DNA from: Escherichia phage EPIMAM01
Sequence record: PQ493298
Length of the DNA: 64,000 bases
Direction: 5' to 3' (one strand)
The notes under the pieces are model-generated. The model was given only the letters and a program-made list of their open reading frames with translations, did no database searches and was not told where the DNA came from. The translations under genes and the position numbers were made by a program. Within the stretch, counting starts at the first letter, position 1. Every line of letters starts with the position of its first letter. Shown piece by piece: positions 29,799-43,418 of this stretch.

Positions 29799-30101
29799 TT
29801 ATTTACCTTTAATTACTTTAGCTGCTTCGATAGCCGCTTGCTGAAGGTCATCCATAGACATACCGAATTTAGAAGCAAAGTTATCAATTTTCTTTTCGAC
29901 AGCATTCAAAGGCTTGGCCTGTTTACCTTCATTAGCGCCAGGAAGAGCGAGAATACGCTCTTTGTCAATATAAAGGCTTACAAGTTTCTTACGGTCTTTA
30001 TCGGACAAATCGTGAAATGAATGGGCCTTTTTATTTATAGCGGCTTCTAATTTACCTGCACTCACTCGCGCTTCAGTAATAAATTCTTGATATGTTTTCA
30101 T
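29799..30101 (-). CDS. ipII: Internal protein II-like (capsid-targeting-sequence protein)
   Basis: 100 aa; N-terminal MKTYQEFITEA capsid targeting sequence; between denV and e as in T4. Confidence 0.7.
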   Translation of the reverse strand: MKTYQEFITEARVSAGKLEAAINKKAHSFHDLSDKDRKKLVSLYIDKERILALPGANEGKQAKPLNAVEKKIDNFASKFGMSMDDLQQAAIEAAKVIKGK

Positions 30102-30138
30102 ATGTTTCCTTTAAATATTTTAATTAGTAATTGTGAAT

Positions 30139-30168
30139 ATACTATCGCAGTTTTAGGAGAAAATAAAC
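30139..30168 (-). promoter_or_regulatory. Early promoter upstream of ipII; copy 2 of direct repeat
   Basis: gtgaatatactatcgcagttttaggagaaaataaac. Confidence 0.45.
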
Positions 30169-30172
30169 AACT

Positions 30173-34190: not shown

Positions 34191-34220
34191 ATAATATCTC
34201 AATCATGAGCCTATGTAAAC
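34191..34220 (-). promoter_or_regulatory. Early promoter with -10 inside inverted repeat (aggctcat / atgagcct)
   Basis: gtaaac 34215-34220, ataata 34191-34196. Confidence 0.45.
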
Positions 34221-34484
34221 TTATTTCATATTATTGAAATATTCTTCTGCGATTTCGTCGTTATCGTGGTAAACTTTAGAAGACAGTTTAACATAACCTT
34301 CAGCAGTGAACATATTAATCACAACCTTTACAGTATACCACTGTCCGTCTTCATTACCCATTACTGCGTAAGTTTCAAACATCGGATGGTCAGGACCGAT
34401 AATTTTAATATCATTCACTGTACGACCGAAATCTTCTGAAACGCATTTCATAAAGAAGTTGAACAGTTCGCCGTAATTATCCAT
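34221..34484 (-). CDS. Hypothetical protein (87 aa from ATG 34484)
   Basis: GGAGA Shine-Dalgarno before ATG 34484; track start lies upstream of promoter -10. Confidence 0.5.
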   Translation of the reverse strand: MDNYGELFNFFMKCVSEDFGRTVNDIKIIGPDHPMFETYAVMGNEDGQWYTVKVVINMFTAEGYVKLSSKVYHDNDEIAEEYFNNMK

Positions 34485-34528
34485 TTCATTCTCCAAGCTG
34501 TTTTTCTGTATCAGTAGTTGATAGTTGT

Positions 34529-34558
34529 ATAGTACCATGGAAGAACAGAGATGTAAAC
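34529..34558 (-). promoter_or_regulatory. T4-type early promoter (GTTTAC / TACTAT)
   Basis: gtaaac 34553-34558, atagta 34529-34534; near-identical to element at 19365-19394. Confidence 0.5.
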
Positions 34559-34702
34559 CGTTTTGTGAAAAAATTTTTAGGGAATTCTAGGGCAGGGAGG
34601 GGCAATTAAAAGGTAGGATTAATATATTACCAAATGATGACTAGAGAGGTCCAGAAAGGCCTAGATACCAAAAAGCCCTATCATTTAGATAGGGATTTAA
34701 AA

Positions 34703-35266
34703 TTATTTACCTAGTTTAGTTATTATAGCTTCTGCAGCAGCTTTTAGCTTAGATGCAGTGTTAATACGATTTTTAATTTCAGTATACGCATCGCCAAGAA
34801 CATCAAGGCTATCAGAATAAACACTTACACTATTGCGTTCGCTATTTGAAATAGAACCTTTAGTTTTACGATCAAAATCGGTGTACACGTCTTGAAGATC
34901 GCGGGCTGCCTTCTTTGCATCATCCAATGCATCAAGAGCTTTATTCAAAGCATTAACGTATTTTTTAGTGTCGAACATATTCTTAGAAATTTTAACAGGT
35001 GCACGTTCAGGAGTAGCTAATACAGATTTAGGAACCTGAGCGCCAGATGCCAATTTCTTAGAAATTTTGAAAAATGCTTTATTGAATTTATTTTCTTGAC
35101 TCATTGTAAAAGAACTATTATCGATGTTGTACATTTCAATAGCTTTAGCTTTCCACTTAAGAAAATCGCCGCGGTCTTTTGGGTCCAATTGGAAGAATAC
35201 TTTAGTAAGATCTGCTTCAGATGGTAATTTTGCTGCTTCGGTTAAAAATTCGGCATAGGTTTTCAT
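34703..35266 (-). CDS. Internal protein (IPIII-like size) with capsid targeting sequence
   Basis: 187 aa; N-terminus MKTYAEFLTEA. Confidence 0.65.
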   Translation of the reverse strand: MKTYAEFLTEAAKLPSEADLTKVFFQLDPKDRGDFLKWKAKAIEMYNIDNSSFTMSQENKFNKAFFKISKKLASGAQVPKSVLATPERAPVKISKNMFDTKKYVNALNKALDALDDAKKAARDLQDVYTDFDRKTKGSISNSERNSVSVYSDSLDVLGDAYTEIKNRINTASKLKAAAEAIITKLGK

Positions 35267-35360
35267 TTAAAATCCTTGAAATAATTTATCGGTTGGTTAT
35301 TAATTATTTATTACTTTGTTACTATCCGTAGCAGCATTCTCTATGTGATTCAAACTAAAA

Positions 35361-35384
35361 AGCCCCAACCTTTCGGCTGGGGCT
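35361..35384 (-). terminator. GC hairpin; copy 1 of ~35-bp direct repeat flanking internal-protein gene
   Basis: ctaaaaagccccaacctttcggctggggctaag. Confidence 0.5.
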
Positions 35385-35391
35385 AAGAATG

Positions 35392-35865
35392 TTATTTGAT
35401 TTGTTTAGCAGACCAAATGCGGTCTTTAATAATTTTTTGGATGTCTTCAACATACTCAAGAGAGTGAACATGTGGATTATCTTTGAAACTATAAGCACGG
35501 GCTAACTTTTGGCCTTCGGTTTTGATTACTAAAAGCTCTTTAAGGATAGCTTCATATTTAGAGATAATTCCTTTAACGATATTTTTTTCTTGTGCAGCTT
35601 TAGGATCTGCTTTAGGAGCAGGTTTACCCGAAGCCTTTGCAAAAGCAGCGCCAGTAGCAACTAAACTTTTCCAGGCCATACTAACTGCATTTCCCGTAAA
35701 TCCTTCTGCTTTCATGTCGCGAGCAAATTGGAATCGTGATTCGTCAGAAGCATCTTTATAGGAATATTTACCCGCTGCAATGGCTGCTTTTGCGACAGCT
35801 TGAATTTCGGTGCTAGATGCTTCATTTAACACCGCTTCATTTAAAAATTGAGCATATGATTTCAT
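35392..35865 (-). CDS. Internal protein with capsid targeting sequence (Ala/Lys-rich)
   Basis: 157 aa; N-terminus MKSYAQFLNEA. Confidence 0.6.
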   Translation of the reverse strand: MKSYAQFLNEAVLNEASSTEIQAVAKAAIAAGKYSYKDASDESRFQFARDMKAEGFTGNAVSMAWKSLVATGAAFAKASGKPAPKADPKAAQEKNIVKGIISKYEAILKELLVIKTEGQKLARAYSFKDNPHVHSLEYVEDIQKIIKDRIWSAKQIK

Positions 35866-35919
35866 CTTATTTCCTGTTTTAATTCGTGGATTTAATATAC
35901 TACTATATTTATACTAAAA

Positions 35920-35943
35920 AGCCCCAACCTTTCGGTCGGGGCT
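35920..35943 (-). terminator. GC hairpin; copy 2 of ~35-bp direct repeat
   Basis: ctaaaaagccccaacctttcggtcggggctaag. Confidence 0.5.
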
Positions 35944-35949
35944 AAGCCT

Positions 35950-36250
35950 TGCGGCAACCTTGTCGGGGTTCCACCTGCTAAGGCAAGTGTTTGTACGAAA
36001 CGCCGGGATTCGAACCCGGTTATTAAGCAGTTGACGCTACTCAATATTTTTAAAAGGCCATATCTCGACCATATCCGAACGTTCCGTCAAAAACGCTACT
36101 CGGCTTACGGCAAAGATATTTCCTCGAATCGATAATTCTGTGCGCCGTTTCTGCTGTGATGTAAGGGGACATTAACAGATCGTAAAGATTTGTTAATGCC
36201 AGTCCTTACCCAGGGAACATCAGTCCGACGACTTACCGGTAGCGACCCGG
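35950..36250 (-). ncRNA. Region likely encoding small stable RNAs of the tRNA operon (T4 species 1/2-like)
   Basis: No ORF; tRNA-like T-arm (accgggttcgaatcccggcg) and GC stems; position downstream of tRNA-Arg as in T4. Confidence 0.4.
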
Positions 36251-36254
36251 TTTC

Positions 36255-36605
36255 TTAATATTCTTTTAAAGCATCAATCTGTTCACGGCGTTTACGCCAT
36301 AAATCAATTGCTTCATACGCAGATTCAGCATTTCGAATTAGTCGGCATTTGTGTAAAGACTTGTGATTTTGATATTGCGTAGATAACGAAATTTTATCTA
36401 AAAGGTCTTTACGTTCAAAGTATTCGTAACCATCTAAGCCAAATGAACGATTTTTGAGAAATTGCCAATGACCATATTCGTTTTCGACATAAACATAATC
36501 CGCATGTTGATAAAGCAAATTAATTACACGTTCAGAAATAACAGTGTCATTGTGATTAAAATAAAATGTTAAATCATGAACTACTAAATAAACATTACCT
36601 TTCAT
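36255..36605 (-). CDS. Hypothetical protein embedded in tRNA operon
   Basis: 116-aa ORF; GAGGAAA Shine-Dalgarno directly after tRNA-Arg 3' end. Confidence 0.5.
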   Translation of the reverse strand: MKGNVYLVVHDLTFYFNHNDTVISERVINLLYQHADYVYVENEYGHWQFLKNRSFGLDGYEYFERKDLLDKISLSTQYQNHKSLHKCRLIRNAESAYEAIDLWRKRREQIDALKEY

Positions 36606-36621: not shown

Positions 36622-36697
36622 TGGTCGAGGCAGTAGGGATCGAACCTACGACCTAGGACTTAGAAGGTCCTTGCTCTTCCTTCTGAGCTATGCCCCG
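36622..36697 (-). tRNA. tRNA-Arg (anticodon UCU)
   Basis: Cloverleaf folded by hand; anticodon loop CUUCUAA; encoded CCA. Confidence 0.8.
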
Positions 36698-36701
36698 TAA
36701 T

Positions 36702-36777
36702 TGGGGTGACCGATGGGGGTCGAACCCATGACTACGAGAATCACAATCTCGAGTTCTACCAACTGAACTACGGCCAC
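36702..36777 (-). tRNA. tRNA-His (anticodon GUG)
   Basis: 7-bp acceptor, D-loop with GG, anticodon loop UUGUGAU, T-loop TTCGACC; no encoded G-1. Confidence 0.65.
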
Positions 36778-36870
36778 ATTAATACCTACTCCAACAATCA
36801 AGATGTCTTCACACGAAATTAAGAGAAGAGTGATCAGTTCAACCCTATAATCGCGTCAAGTAGATATTAA

Positions 36871-36886
36871 TGTGACAGTTGTCACA
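36871..36886. repeat. Palindrome TGTGACA-gt-TGTCACA in tRNA spacer
   Basis: 7-bp inverted repeat with 2-nt centre. Confidence 0.4.
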
Positions 36887-36890
36887 AATT

Positions 36891-36965
36891 TGGCGGACGT
36901 GATAGGATTCGAACCTATAACCAATCGCTTAACAGGCGATCGCTCTGCCATTGAGCTACACATCC
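36891..36965 (-). tRNA. tRNA-Asn (anticodon GUU)
   Basis: Canonical stems: D-stem GCTC/GAGC, anticodon stem ATCGC/GCGAT, loop CUGUUAA; CCA encoded. Confidence 0.8.
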
Positions 36966-36969
36966 AAAT

Positions 36970-37055
36970 TGGTGGGGAGTGATGGAGTCGAACCACCCGA
37001 GTCGCAATGACAATGGATTTACAGTCCACACCGCTACCTCTACGGGATAACTCCC
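36970..37055 (-). tRNA. tRNA-Tyr (anticodon GUA), class II with long variable arm
   Basis: Anticodon loop CUGUAAA; long variable arm; CCA encoded. Confidence 0.65.
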
Positions 37056-37069
37056 CTTAATTCTTAATT

Positions 37070-37144
37070 TGGTGGCCCTGGGTGGAATTGAACCACCATC
37101 TGGCGATTATGAGTCGCTTGCTTGAACCTTCCAGCTACAGGGCC
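37070..37144 (-). tRNA. tRNA with CAU anticodon (Ile via lysidine, as in T4, or Met)
   Basis: Anticodon loop CUCAUAA; sits at the position of T4 tRNA-Ile after tRNA-Thr. Confidence 0.7.
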
Positions 37145-37145
37145 T

Positions 37146-37221
37146 TGGTGCTGATTGACGGAATCGAACCGCCGACCTTCTCATTACAAGTGAGTTGCTC
37201 TACCTACTGAGCTAAATCAGC
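37146..37221 (-). tRNA. tRNA-Thr (anticodon UGU)
   Basis: Anticodon loop CUUGUAA; adjacent to CAU tRNA (dimeric precursor arrangement). Confidence 0.8.
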
Positions 37222-37226
37222 AAAAC

Positions 37227-37316
37227 TGGCGGAGGCGATAGGATTTGAACCTATGAGTCGTCGGAGCGACTGCCGGTTTTCAAGACCGGTGCATTAAACC
37301 ACTCTGCCACGCCTCC
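37227..37316 (-). tRNA. tRNA-Ser (anticodon UGA), class II
   Basis: Anticodon stem CCGGU/ACCGG, loop CUUGAAA; long variable arm. Confidence 0.8.
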
Positions 37317-37318
37317 AG

Positions 37319-37392
37319 TCTCCATACAAGGATTTGAACCTTGGACCTCCTGATCCCAAATCAGGCGCTCTACCAAACTGAGCTACACGGAG
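37319..37392 (-). tRNA. tRNA-Pro (anticodon UGG), CCA not encoded
   Basis: Anticodon loop UUUGGGA; 2-nt spacer to tRNA-Ser (Pro-Ser dimer as in T4). Confidence 0.75.
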
Positions 37393-37402
37393 TAAATTAA
37401 AT

Positions 37403-37476
<74 letters not shown>

Positions 37477-37481
37477 AAATT

Positions 37482-37568
37482 TGGTGCGAGAAGTGGGACT
37501 CGAACCCACAAGGAAATCATTCCGCAGCATTTTAAGTGCTGTGCCTTTACCAATTTGACCATTCTCGC
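37482..37568 (-). tRNA. tRNA-Leu (anticodon UAA), class II
   Basis: Anticodon stem CAGCA/UGCUG, loop CUUAAAA; long variable arm. Confidence 0.8.
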
Positions 37569-37569
37569 G

Positions 37570-37642
37570 CTGAGAATAAAGGACTCGAACCTTTGCATCC
37601 TGGAATCAAAATCCAGTGCCTTACCAACTTGGCTAATTCCCA
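37570..37642 (-). tRNA. tRNA-Gln (anticodon UUG), CCA not encoded
   Basis: Anticodon stem CUGGA/UCCAG, loop UUUUGAU; 1-nt spacer to tRNA-Leu (Gln-Leu dimer as in T4). Confidence 0.75.
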
Positions 37643-38540: not shown

Positions 38541-38939
38541 TCAGCCTTCATCAACAATAGTGTGAGTATTAGCATTTACGATTTGCCACCAATCAAAGCG
38601 ATTAGAATCCATCGGTTTGTTTTCATTTTCTTTGATAATGTCACGGAGTTCATCTTCAGAGAATGCTTTAGCAATTAAATCGGTATACCCACCACGGGGA
38701 TAATAATTATCACCTGCAAACAAAAGGAAATTTACCTTCCCGGAAGGAACATATGCTTCCTTAGGATACTTGTTTCCTGCGTGGTCAACCACTTCAATAT
38801 AACGGTAAGGAATATCGGTTCTTTCAACCCATTGCCATGCCGCCGCAGGGGAATCGAAAGCATCTACACCTAAACGATTATCTTCATCTTTAGACGGATT
38901 ATTTTCGTAATCCGCATATACATAATATTCAACGTTCAT
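38541..38939 (-). CDS. Hypothetical acidic protein
   Basis: 132-aa ORF. Confidence 0.55.
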   Translation of the reverse strand: MNVEYYVYADYENNPSKDEDNRLGVDAFDSPAAAWQWVERTDIPYRYIEVVDHAGNKYPKEAYVPSGKVNFLLFAGDNYYPRGGYTDLIAKAFSEDELRDIIKENENKPMDSNRFDWWQIVNANTHTIVDEG

Positions 38940-39124: not shown

Positions 39125-39152
39125 TTTATTCTCCTCAGTAGTTGATAGGGTA

Positions 39153-39182
39153 ATAGTATCACTACCCCATCTAAAAGTAAAC
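39153..39182 (-). promoter_or_regulatory. Early promoter with -10 inside inverted repeat (gggta / taccc)
   Basis: gtaaac 39177-39182, atagta 39153-39158. Confidence 0.5.
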
Positions 39183-39416
39183 TTATTTTTTACGAAAAAT
39201 TGATTTATTTTCTGCTGCCCATTTTTCAATAACTGCAGCAGGACCAGTAACAACAATTTTATCACCGTAATCTTCTGCGGCGAGTTGACCGAAATTATCT
39301 AATGCATCACGAAGAACTCCATGAGGCATTTCACCCATTTTATCTTTCTTGCCGGTGTAAATAAACTCAACTTTTACATCAGAAGATTCAGCGATAAACT
39401 CTTTGAAAGTTTTCAT
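39183..39416 (-). CDS. Internal protein (IPI-like) with capsid targeting sequence
   Basis: 77 aa from ATG 39416; N-terminus MKTFKEFIAES. Confidence 0.6.
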   Translation of the reverse strand: MKTFKEFIAESSDVKVEFIYTGKKDKMGEMPHGVLRDALDNFGQLAAEDYGDKIVVTGPAAVIEKWAAENKSIFRKK

Positions 39417-39453
39417 TTTAGTTTCCATTCGATTGTTTTGTTTTGATAGGGTA

Positions 39454-39483
39454 ATAGTATCACAACTAAAACCCTATGTAAAC
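39454..39483 (-). promoter_or_regulatory. Early promoter with -10 inside inverted repeat (agggt / accct)
   Basis: gtaaac 39478-39483, atagta 39454-39459. Confidence 0.5.
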
Positions 39484-39495
39484 AACTTTGTGAAA

Positions 39496-39753
39496 TTATT
39501 TTAAATCTTCTAATCGTTTCTTCATCTTAGAACCATTTTTAGCAATTTCTCCTGCATCGGAGCATAATGCTAAAAGTGCTTTAACTTTAGTTTGGTCTCC
39601 TTTAAAAGATGAAGGATCGACTGCAGCAGCAAGTTCTTTAATACGAGAGAAAAGACGCTCAGCTTCAGCTAAAGCCATTCCAAGCTTTACTTCCATACCG
39701 TGGGAAGATTCAGTGATAGTAGTTTTTGCAGCAAACTCTTTGAAAGTTTTCAT
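39496..39753 (-). CDS. Internal protein with capsid targeting sequence
   Basis: 85 aa; N-terminus MKTFKEFAAKT. Confidence 0.6.
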   Translation of the reverse strand: MKTFKEFAAKTTITESSHGMEVKLGMALAEAERLFSRIKELAAAVDPSSFKGDQTKVKALLALCSDAGEIAKNGSKMKKRLEDLK

Positions 39754-39795
39754 TTTATTTTCCTAATTAATTTTGATGAGGTAATAGTATCACTA

Positions 39796-39825
39796 CCTCA
39801 TCAGCATGTAAACAACTTTGTGAAA
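39796..39825 (-). promoter_or_regulatory. Early promoter with -10 inside 9-bp inverted repeat (gatgaggta / tacctcatc)
   Basis: gtaaac 39820-39825, atagta 39796-39801. Confidence 0.5.
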
Positions 39826-40522
<697 letters not shown>

Positions 40523-41934: not shown

Positions 41935-42594
41935 TTAATTTATTAGACTTCTTAAACGAGCAGAAGTCATAAATGGAAATTTTTCTAAAGTTGGCTTTCG
42001 CCAATATCTTGGATGACAAGTTGATTTAAAATCAAGAACAACTTTCTTTGCTTCATCAATAGTGTTAACTCCAAAGTTATCTAACATTATTTTCTTTTCT
42101 TTTTCCCACCGTTTATTAGCTAAAGCAGATTGAAGCTTTTTGTTTTTAAATGTGTCATTTTTTCTAGAATGAGTTGTGCCTTGTGTCGGACTCCATCCTC
42201 TTCCTAAAATAAATCCCTCAGGAATTATATCTCCATCATGTAATTTTATACATCTTTTACCATTATTATAATATTTTCGTCCAGTTTGTGTATTTGAAAT
42301 ATTATTTGCATGTTTTCTTTTTAACCAACCATAAACTTTATTATTTCTCCTAACATATTTAGTTGAAACCGTCATTTTTATGGCTGCATAAGATAATTTT
42401 AAAGAATTTGGGTGTATTTTTACTAATAGCTGATGTGCAACATAATGCTCTTCTGGAGTTAAATCAACCAAGTTAGAAGCATCATTACTACCGCCTAAAC
42501 ATTTCGGAATAATATGATGTCTTTCTTTATATCCAGTAAGGGCTCTATTGCGAGCCCTATCAATTAGTGAATTATAAATTTTTTCATAATTCAT
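41935..42594 (-). CDS. Free-standing HNH homing endonuclease
   Basis: 219 aa from ATG 42594 (ATGA overlap with gene 2 stop); HNH core [27 protein letters not shown]; very basic C-terminal half. Confidence 0.7.
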
Positions 42595-43418
42595 CGTACA
42601 TTGCTCCAAACTTTGTTTGCAGAGAAACGTTTTCCTTTGGAGTAGAAGCTTTGGAGTGGCATTAACACAACGTTCGCCCAGTCTTTCGGGGCGATTTCAA
42701 CAAGGCTACCCATAATATTACCGGGGATATATGCCTTAATCATTTGGTCTGCACCCCTAAATCCTTTCACTTGACTCCAATCAATTTTTAATTTCGTTTT
42801 ATTAGTAATAGTAGGTGTATTTGAATATTGCTTTAAAAGCTCTTCTAGAAATTGCTGACGAGCTTTAGGTGGAATATAGTGCAAGTTCAATCCATACATT
42901 AAATTATGTTTACCTAAACCAAGATAAATTATCAAAGGAAATTTATCCCAGTAAGGAAGAGTTTCCTTGTGTTTAGCATCATAAGCAAAAGCATATATTC
43001 GTCCCGGCTGCGGGCGAACAACCTTATGTCCTTTTACTTGCTTAATAGTTTCAGCAAACCACTTTCTGGTTTTATTATTAATTGCTGCACCTTCATTACG
43101 AATTTTATCACGCAATGTTTGCCTGAATGAATTTATCATAAGCAGTTGTCTTTCTTGCTTATTGAGTTTATTCATTGGTTTTGATTCAAGCTTTTGAATC
43201 TTTTCAGCTGTTTTAATTCCTGAAGCATATTTTGACATTGCCGAAGTAAACGTAGAGTATTTGATTCCTCTTTCTTCAGCAAATTTCTTTCCTGTCATTC
43301 CTTTTGCTTTGGCCTTTTTGTATTCAAGACCTATCTGAATCCATTTCTTTTCGTTTAATGATTGCTTAACCTTTGGAACTTGGGGAGTGCTTTCATTAAT
43401 TATTTGAAAAATAGCCAT
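42591..43418 (-). CDS. 2: DNA end-protector protein gp2
   Basis: 275 aa; position between genes 4 and 3. Confidence 0.8.

Follow-up and report, generated by a model that had tools for sequence, protein, structure and literature searches.

The internal proteins of T4-type phages are small, basic and non-essential. Their genes lie in variable stretches of the genome close to e, the tRNA genes and 57B, and the proteins carry an N-terminal capsid targeting sequence with a gp21 cleavage site, L/I-x-E/A (slashes mark the cut). In T4, foreign proteins are packaged when they bear no more than the initial 10 residues of IPIII, leader residues 4 and 7 matter for targeting and 8 and 10 for processing in the mutagenesis of Mullaney and Black, and gp21 cuts after L/I-x-E (reviewed in PMC9026906). 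Among the GmrSD type IV enzymes, Ip1, Ip2 and Ip3 act as inhibitors, each of a different one; targets of ip4-10 are not yet known, several active GmrSD groups have no known inhibitor, and Silas et al. write of "the two Ip loci" (PMC12373910). IPIII is needed on strain ECOR17 (PMC9391042), and Bas37_0260, encoded at the ipI locus, inhibits McrBC (bioRxiv 10.1101/2025.11.20.689424). A second relevant system is that of the PeSL and PmSL elements (Arbiol 2010, Comeau 2014), which bear sigma-70-like early or Mot middle promoters; PeSLs flank variable open reading frames (ORFs) and excise as mini-circles in T4-type phages (PMC2839356, PMC4122927). Here we describe two adjacent minus-strand genes, for proteins of 187 and 157 amino acids (aa), located between e.8 and rnaC in 64,000 nucleotides (nt) of Escherichia phage EPIMAM01 (record PQ493298, one strand, 5' to 3'; hereafter the window), a T4-like phage of the genus Tequatrovirus. 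We consider it probable that they are two independent, monocistronic late-gene cassettes at the tRNA/rnaC terminator, which encode proteins with head-targeting leaders and are exchanged at hairpins.

An initial annotation, made from the letters of the window, had placed internal-protein leaders at the start of both ORFs and counted five such genes in all. Both ORFs exist as described, and the count of five was confirmed. Translated in six frames, the window yields five matches to the motif MK[TS][YF]x[EQ]F, against a mean of 0.005 in 200 first-order Markov simulations, and each match is the start of an ORF. Three of the five genes are homologues of the named internal proteins Ip2, Ip5 and Ip6:

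34703 to 35266, minus strand: 187-aa protein, leader MKTYAEFLTE/A, ORF start MKTYAEFLTEAAK, leader motif match.
35392 to 35865, minus strand: 157-aa protein, leader MKSYAQFLNE/AVLNE/A with two L-x-E/A sites, ORF start MKSYAQFLNEAVLNEASS.
29799 to 30101, minus strand: ipII homologue with the leader motif, homologue of the named Ip2.
39183 to 39416, minus strand: Ip6 homologue of 77 aa at the ipI locus, 94% aa identity to T6 Ip6, phrog_8111 (internal virion protein).
39496 to 39753, minus strand: Ip5 homologue of 85 aa at the ipI locus, 99% aa identity to T6 Ip5, phrog_3499 (internal head protein).

The ORF of the Ip6 homologue had been listed as starting at 39428, but its leader methionine is at 39416, giving 77 aa as in T6 Ip6. 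Its leader reads MKTFKEFIAES, that of T6 Ip6 (L029, 8017-8250) MKTYQEFIAET, and the mature parts are the same except for the conservative change V62I; leaders have probably been swapped between ip genes by recombination in leader-coding DNA. The T4 gene ipIII, which lies between e and ipII in T4, is missing from the window (the site is 30102-30172), and ipII is retained. At this e-side locus neither denV nor ipII is annotated in AR1, RB14 and RB32, which carry the unrelated Ip4 (157 aa), and the T6 annotation shows no ip gene. Since ipIII, Ip4 or no gene alternate there, all three ip sites vary independently from phage to phage.

The T4 leaders used for comparison (read from L001) are about 10 residues long and resemble MKTYQEFIAE. 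Both new proteins have Y4, F7, L8 and E10 followed by Ala11, and thus the targeting residues Y4 and F7 and the L/I-x-E site with a small residue behind it, as in T4-type internal proteins. The gp21-type site is LTE/A at residues 8-10 of the 187-aa protein and LNE/A at residues 8-10 of the 157-aa protein, which has a second site at residues 13-15. The predicted mature forms are 177 aa, 19.7 kDa and pI 9.54 for the 187-aa protein, with AAKLPSEADLTK as the N-terminal peptide after leader removal, and about 147 aa, 16.0 kDa and pI 9.5 for the 157-aa protein, with either AVLNEASSTEIQAVAK or ASSTEIQAVAK. With a pI of 9.5, against 9.0-9.7 for T4 IPI-III, both are basic; small, basic and variable between close relatives, they fall by those criteria in the class of T4-type internal proteins. 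The capsid-targeting interpretation thus held in every sequence-only test (Y4/F7/L8/E10, gp21 site, conservation and basic mature forms), and both proteins are likely packaged, trimmed and injected. By analogy with T4 IPI-III, the 10-residue capsid targeting sequence would bind them to the gp22 scaffolding core of the prohead, and gp21 would remove the leader after Glu10 and possibly also after Glu15 in the 157-aa protein. The head would then contain two basic proteins, of roughly 16 and 20 kDa, to be injected with the DNA.

Beyond the leader, the new proteins differ from known T4-type internal proteins. Alignment with the T4 internal proteins, a check proposed in the initial annotation, demonstrated no similarity to them in the mature part of either protein. 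BLASTP aligned the 187-aa protein with T4 IPIII and AR1 Ip4 at the leader at most, and the possibility that it is a diverged IPIII was rejected on the lack of similarity past the leader. Identity of the 157-aa protein with Ip4, which has the same length, was rejected likewise, as BLASTP aligns the leader at most. Between the two new proteins BLASTP aligned only the leader, and hhalign gave a probability of 17% (10-18% against a 126-aa protein of IMG/VR contig L020, described below). All three match phrog_2280, labelled "unknown function", and the N-domains of the three may be remotely homologous. Ip1-6, unlike the members of phrog_2280, fall in phrogs labelled internal protein. The names Ip4-Ip10 reportedly go back to Repoila et al. 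1994. Proteins without homology to each other, joined only by the leader and replaced from phage to phage, are also what Ip4-Ip10 and Bas37_0260 represent. Those belong to the two recognized ip loci, next to e and next to 57B, whereas the new genes occupy a third site. Ip4 is unrelated to either protein, and neither bears an Ip name in the records examined.

The same genes, at 95-100% identity, are annotated as "hypothetical" RB32ORF133c, AR1_137, RB14ncORF136c and RB69ORF148c-149c, and among the records examined for these genes we found no recognition of the leader and no internal-protein name. The GenBank note on RB32ORF133c describes it as "flanked by 34 bp imperfect direct repeat", and direct repeats also flank Ip7 and Ip9 according to the RB32 notes. 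The 157-aa gene is present in 494 phage records, with no functional annotation among the 80 matches listed or in named database homologues, and its product is 97% identical to RB32ORF133c. The family comprises 13 representatives among 1.84 billion clustered proteins, in T4-like phages only, and homologues at about 40% identity or weaker retain the leader pattern x-x-F/Y-x-x-F-L-x-E. In an AlphaFold2 model (pLDDT 76) the N-domain is helical, and a linker rich in Pro and Lys connects it to a helical hairpin at the C-terminus; Foldseek found no match for the model in the PDB (best E = 1.7). Homologues in Yersinia phage fHe-Yen9-01 and Klebsiella phage KP01 have the N-terminal helical domain in common with the 157-aa protein and a different C-terminal domain; because only the N-domain matches, domains are shuffled too. 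A 94-aa protein from a Logan assembly (P0014) has an N-terminal part like the trna.3-like ORF of the window (38541-38939) fused to the final 32 residues of the 157-aa protein (35392-35490), and is a natural recombinant or an assembly artefact.

The 187-aa gene is present in 164 phage records, all "hypothetical", and a word-indexed search placed its family in 11 clusters, again in T4-like phages only. Its AlphaFold model is unreliable (pLDDT 57), although the fold resembles that of the 157-aa model. In the RB69 reference (L005, 3001-3563) the gene is annotated as two overlapping ORFs, ORF148c and ORF149c, with DNA 95.6% identical to the intact gene; the split is a frameshift or a sequencing error.

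The initial annotation had bracketed the 157-aa gene with two near-identical 35-bp hairpin repeats. The repeats are real, but the first copy begins at 35355, one base from where it had been placed, and both spans had been drawn 1-2 nt too long. The elements of the site are as follows:

34221 to 34538, minus strand: e.8 homologue, 96% nt identity to T4 e.8, named e.8 in ime09 and AR1; conserved flank downstream of the cassette site.
34668 to 34697 (stem-loop 34676 to 34694), minus strand: terminator A, of the 187-aa gene; stem CCCTATC/GATAGGG, 5-nt loop and T-run, annotated as a terminator in DalCa.
35305 to 35312, minus strand: near-consensus late promoter box AATAAATA, 46 nt upstream of the 187-aa ATG and about 40 nt from the hairpin; a motif match only.
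35355 to 35387 (stem-loop 35361 to 35384), minus strand: hairpin copy B, terminator of the 157-aa gene, AGCCCCAGCC-GAAA-GGTTGGGGCT-TTTTT, annotated as a terminator in DalCa.
35906 to 35913, minus strand: canonical T4 late promoter box TATAAATA, 48 nt upstream of the 157-aa ATG and 2 nt downstream of the T-run of hairpin C.
35914 to 35946 (stem-loop 35920 to 35943), minus strand: hairpin copy C, a terminator that follows rnaC and the tRNA operon and corresponds to the one hairpin found in T4.
35949 to 36255, minus strand: homologues of rnaC/rnaD (stable species 1 and 2 RNA), 93.6% identity to the T4 rnaC+rnaD segment; conserved upstream flank.

The two repeats share 90% identity over 40 nt (35348-35387 and 35907-35946), with a 28-nt core AAAAAGCCCCAACCTTTCGG(CT/TC)GGGGCT at 35357-35384 and 35916-35943. 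No other match to the core at up to 3 mismatches was found in the 64 kb, and there were none in 100 shuffles. On the transcribed minus strand the hairpin reads AGCCCC(GA/AG)CC-GAAA-GGTTGGGGCT-TTTTT: of the 10 bp in the stem 7 are G-C, the loop is of the GNRA type, and a T-run follows. The copies differ by two bases in the stem, with pairing kept (A-U/G-U in one, G-U/A-U in the other), and have folding energies of -20.7 kcal/mol (z = -4.8) and -24.9 kcal/mol (z = -5.1). Copy B begins 7 nt past the stop codon of the 157-aa gene, and copy C about 5 nt past rnaC. By form and position both read as minus-strand intrinsic (rho-independent) terminators, because the stem is G+C rich, a U-run follows and both stand at the ends of transcription units; the DalCa record labels these sites as terminators, a role that the initial annotation had not mentioned. 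Each cassette would then run from a late-type promoter box through a ribosome-binding site and an ORF to an intrinsic terminator of its own, with the near-identical hairpins of 33-35 nt terminating successive units. Terminator A has a stem unlike that of the repeated hairpin and has only AAAAAGCCC (9 nt) in common with it. Hairpin repeats stand on both sides of the 157-aa gene; the 187-aa gene has this other terminator on its 3' side, and the repeat that flanks its insert is just the 9-nt AAAAAGCCC.

Comparison of the site among phages bore out the suggestion that these genes behave as cassettes. The stretch from 34200 to 36300 matched 770 phage records (top identity 98%). About 771 records match the flanks, compared with 494 for the 157-aa gene, 164 for the 187-aa gene and 127 for the whole two-gene stretch. 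Four states of occupancy were observed. The site is empty, with one hairpin, in T4, T2, T6 and RB3; it holds only the 157-aa gene in AR1, RB32 and Bas39, only the 187-aa gene in RB14, HY03 and the Mosigvirus RB69, and both genes in the window, DalCa, Bas36/Paracelsus (bas36_0244 and bas36_0245) and IMG/VR contigs, always in the order e.8-187-157-rnaC. Among 41 sampled records that span the junction, the 157-aa gene stands alone in 21 and the 187-aa gene in 4, whereas 7 hold both, 7 hold neither and 2 could not be assigned; these counts derive from the distance between flank matches, which was checked on three records.

In six aligned records covering all four states, the junctions, read from 14 nt on either side of each hairpin (HP), fall inside the hairpin or its A-run, and the flanks swap exactly there. 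The T4 junction is ...tagatacc-HP-aac/gccttgcggcaa. That of AR1 is ...tagatacc-HP-aagaatgtta[157]tatttatacc-HP-aagccttgcggcaa, and that of RB14 is ...tagatacc-AAAAAG-[own terminator, 187]gattcaaact-HP-aagccttgcggcaa. The junctions of the window are an exact concatenation of the AR1- and RB14-type arrangements, so that the "both" and "empty" states could come from one unequal crossover. As direct repeats, the hairpins would supply the homology: a crossover between the RB14-type hairpin to the right of the 187-aa gene and the AR1-type hairpin to the left of the 157-aa gene would give "both" and "empty", and one between the two copies in a single genome would delete the 157-aa cassette or release a circle.

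These features resemble the PeSL and PmSL elements in several respects. In both systems variable ORFs are flanked by a terminator stem-loop with a promoter, a putative one at the present locus. As with PeSLs, insertion, deletion or replacement of the ORFs between copies distinguishes close relatives at this locus; the breakpoints fall within the element, and an empty site retains one copy of it. The promoters differ, being sigma-70-like early or Mot middle in PeSLs; the late-type TATAAATA is present here only for the 157-aa cassette and the genes of two IMG/VR contigs (L020 and L008), while for the 187-aa gene the sole box is AATAAATA, some 40 nt away from the hairpin. The repeated part here is also roughly the stem-loop alone, at 33-35 nt. 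The comparison supports gain and loss of cassettes by unequal crossover, with late promoters putatively taking the place of those in the PeSL elements already published.

In L020 and L008 other genes stand at this position, behind the same hairpin-TATAAATA junction. In L020 (12437-12817) it stands before a gene for a 126-aa protein, MYTVNEFLAETEIITE/AG..., with a Pro/Lys-rich tail. In L008 (3599-3982) the gene encodes a 127-aa protein, MLTYAEFLNRNTITE/SVLTE/AG..., and replaces most of rnaC; the same contig (2934-3488) also encodes a hydrophobic, leaderless protein of 184 aa (phrog_2143). Five further IMG/VR contigs (L011, L012, L015, L016 and L017) contain the hairpin core AAAAAGCCCCAACCTTTCGGnnGGGGCT exactly, in neighborhoods that show no rnaC, e.8 or ip-type genes.

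Several observations weigh against exchange of late-gene cassettes at the hairpins. Because its core occurs in those contigs without rnaC, e.8 or ip-type neighbors, the hairpin is a common strong terminator, convergent or horizontally spread, and not a dedicated recombination site, and the repeat was not found at the window's other two ip loci. The initial annotation had linked the hairpins to exchange of internal-protein genes as cassettes; as a signal for ip cassettes in general they were not upheld. This hairpin belongs to the present site only, and the repeat in use at ipI is another one, an early promoter element and not a terminator. The known ip genes of the window have early-type promoters, whereas the new genes have late-type boxes. 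A single match to TATAAATA is not significant, because 9 were found on the minus strand against about 8 expected in A+T-rich DNA, and the box of the 187-aa gene is one off the consensus. Identity between genomes is a fine-scale mosaic across the whole region, and a block shared by RB69 and the window at 91-100% identity (compared with about 78% in e.6) spans e.8, the 187-aa gene and rnaC. A sharp boundary of identity at the RB69 hairpins, sought as proof of cassette-limited transfer, is absent. For the proteins, Pfam, PADLOC and PDB sequence searches gave no match for either and hence no functional lead, and no virion proteomics or N-terminal data for them were found in the literature searched, which included papers on carrier phages and relatives (fPS-90 and RB69).

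The mosaicism, the reach of the RB69 block beyond the cassette, the missing hairpins at the other ip loci and the hairpins in neighborhoods without T4-like genes would all be expected if the hairpins are only terminators, duplicated as a by-product of inserting a whole unit, with alleles moving by recombination in the flanks (e.8 and rnaC). Since the RB69 block extends into both flanks, flank-mediated exchange does also operate. As the whole explanation it appears unlikely, because in the six aligned records the junctions lie inside the hairpin or A-run and the flanks swap there, the "both" state always has the order that a hairpin crossover predicts, and in other phages this hairpin-TATAAATA junction is followed by genes unrelated to the ones here. 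In T4, homologies of 6-10 bp, far shorter than the hairpin repeat, are enough for recombination (PMC9391042).

Other alternatives concern what the proteins do. They could be structural or DNA-condensing proteins of head assembly and not anti-defence proteins, the 187-aa protein replacing IPIII. The window lacks ipIII, the mature 187-aa protein is close in size and charge to T4 IPIII* (183 aa, 20.4 kDa, pI 9.65), and IPIII mutants have aberrations in head assembly (PMC9026906). But no IPIII-like structural protein is required, because AR1 and RB32 have neither ipIII nor the 187-aa gene, and in T6 the site is empty and no ip gene lies beside e; IPIII itself is a GmrSD inhibitor (PMC12373910), and presence/absence polymorphism is typical of accessory anti-defence genes. 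We regard a purely structural role as improbable. Still more remote is the idea that the proteins are not packaged and act in the cell, their common N-terminus deriving from recombination or gene conversion of 5' ends or from a shared translation-initiation region. The leader DNA of both genes is indeed 76% identical over 42 nt including the ribosome-binding site, and the Ip6 comparison between the window and T6 shows a leader swapped on otherwise identical proteins. Against it, the leader is conserved at the protein level at positions 4, 7, 8 and 10 and persists where the DNA of homologues is far diverged, and ten such residues are enough for packaging of foreign proteins in T4 (PMC9026906). 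We retain packaged leader proteins on exchangeable cassettes as the preferred interpretation. Its most speculative step is that the proteins would block a first-line defence such as type IV restriction of glucosyl-hmC DNA, as Ip1, Ip2, Ip3 and Bas37_0260 do; by this analogy, an anti-defence role for both is plausible.

Gene order in the window is as in T4 (e, nudE, e.2-e.8, rnaC/rnaD, tRNAs, trna.2-4, ip locus, 57B, 57A, 1, 3), all genes from e to 3 are on the minus strand, and the gap between e.8 and rnaC contains about 1.27 kb more DNA than in T4. No Rfam family matched rnaC/rnaD or the hairpins. Between rnaD and tRNA-Arg lies a 116-aa ORF (36255-36605, minus strand) that many relatives have and T4 and T6 lack. 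The tRNA cluster (36622-37642) has 11 genes, with extra His, Asn, Tyr and CAU-anticodon tRNAs and without segB, compared with 8 tRNAs and segB in T4. At the ipI locus, an element of about 71 nt occurs in three copies (39140-39210, 39441-39511 and 39771-39841), each with a sigma-70-like early promoter (GTTTACA ... TACTAT) and a stem-loop around the -10 box, the arms of which differ by compensatory changes (TAGGGT/ACCCTA and TGAGGT/ACCTCA). The second and third of these are well conserved and precede the Ip6 and Ip5 homologues, PeSL-like and unlike the terminator repeat; the remaining copy is weak (62%) and overlaps the 3' end of the Ip6 homologue. A 224-aa ORF between genes 3 and 2 (41935-42609, minus strand), not in T4, has a weak HNH-endonuclease match under the Pfam cut-off and is probably a homing-endonuclease insertion.

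Proteins tagged with a capsid targeting sequence and injected, and repeat-bounded cassettes in the hyperplastic regions of T4-type phages, are known concepts, and the genes themselves are in hundreds of public genomes. New here are the placement of "hypothetical" proteins as candidate internal proteins at a third locus, with at least two more in other phages and none in the model phages, and cassettes bounded by a terminator joined to a late-type promoter box. We found no treatment of the e.8-rnaC site as an ip locus in the literature searched, with Repoila et al. 1994 outside that search. A wider proposal, which we offer tentatively, is that the site is a third hotspot for injected proteins in the Tevenvirinae, with at least four leader genes (for the 157-, 187-, 126- and 127-aa proteins), occupied in about three-quarters of relatives. 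These genes would shuttle as cassettes of terminator and late promoter, each product inhibiting a different first-line defence, such as the GmrSD variants without a known Ip partner. On this proposal the site would have escaped notice through being empty in T2, T4 and T6, the number of Ip loci being given as two in recent work.

Injected internal proteins of T-even phages are specific inhibitors of type IV restriction, as Ip1-3 are of GmrSD variants and Bas37_0260 is of McrBC, and the e.8-rnaC site adds at least two leader-bearing candidates that are common in therapeutic and collection phages (BASEL Bas36 and Bas39). Their absence from T2, T4 and T6 provides a natural gain-of-function comparison. 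Each of the four arrangements that unequal crossover at a terminator repeat can produce (none, the 187-aa gene, the 157-aa gene, and both) is represented at the locus, which may be used to measure cassette exchange in crosses.

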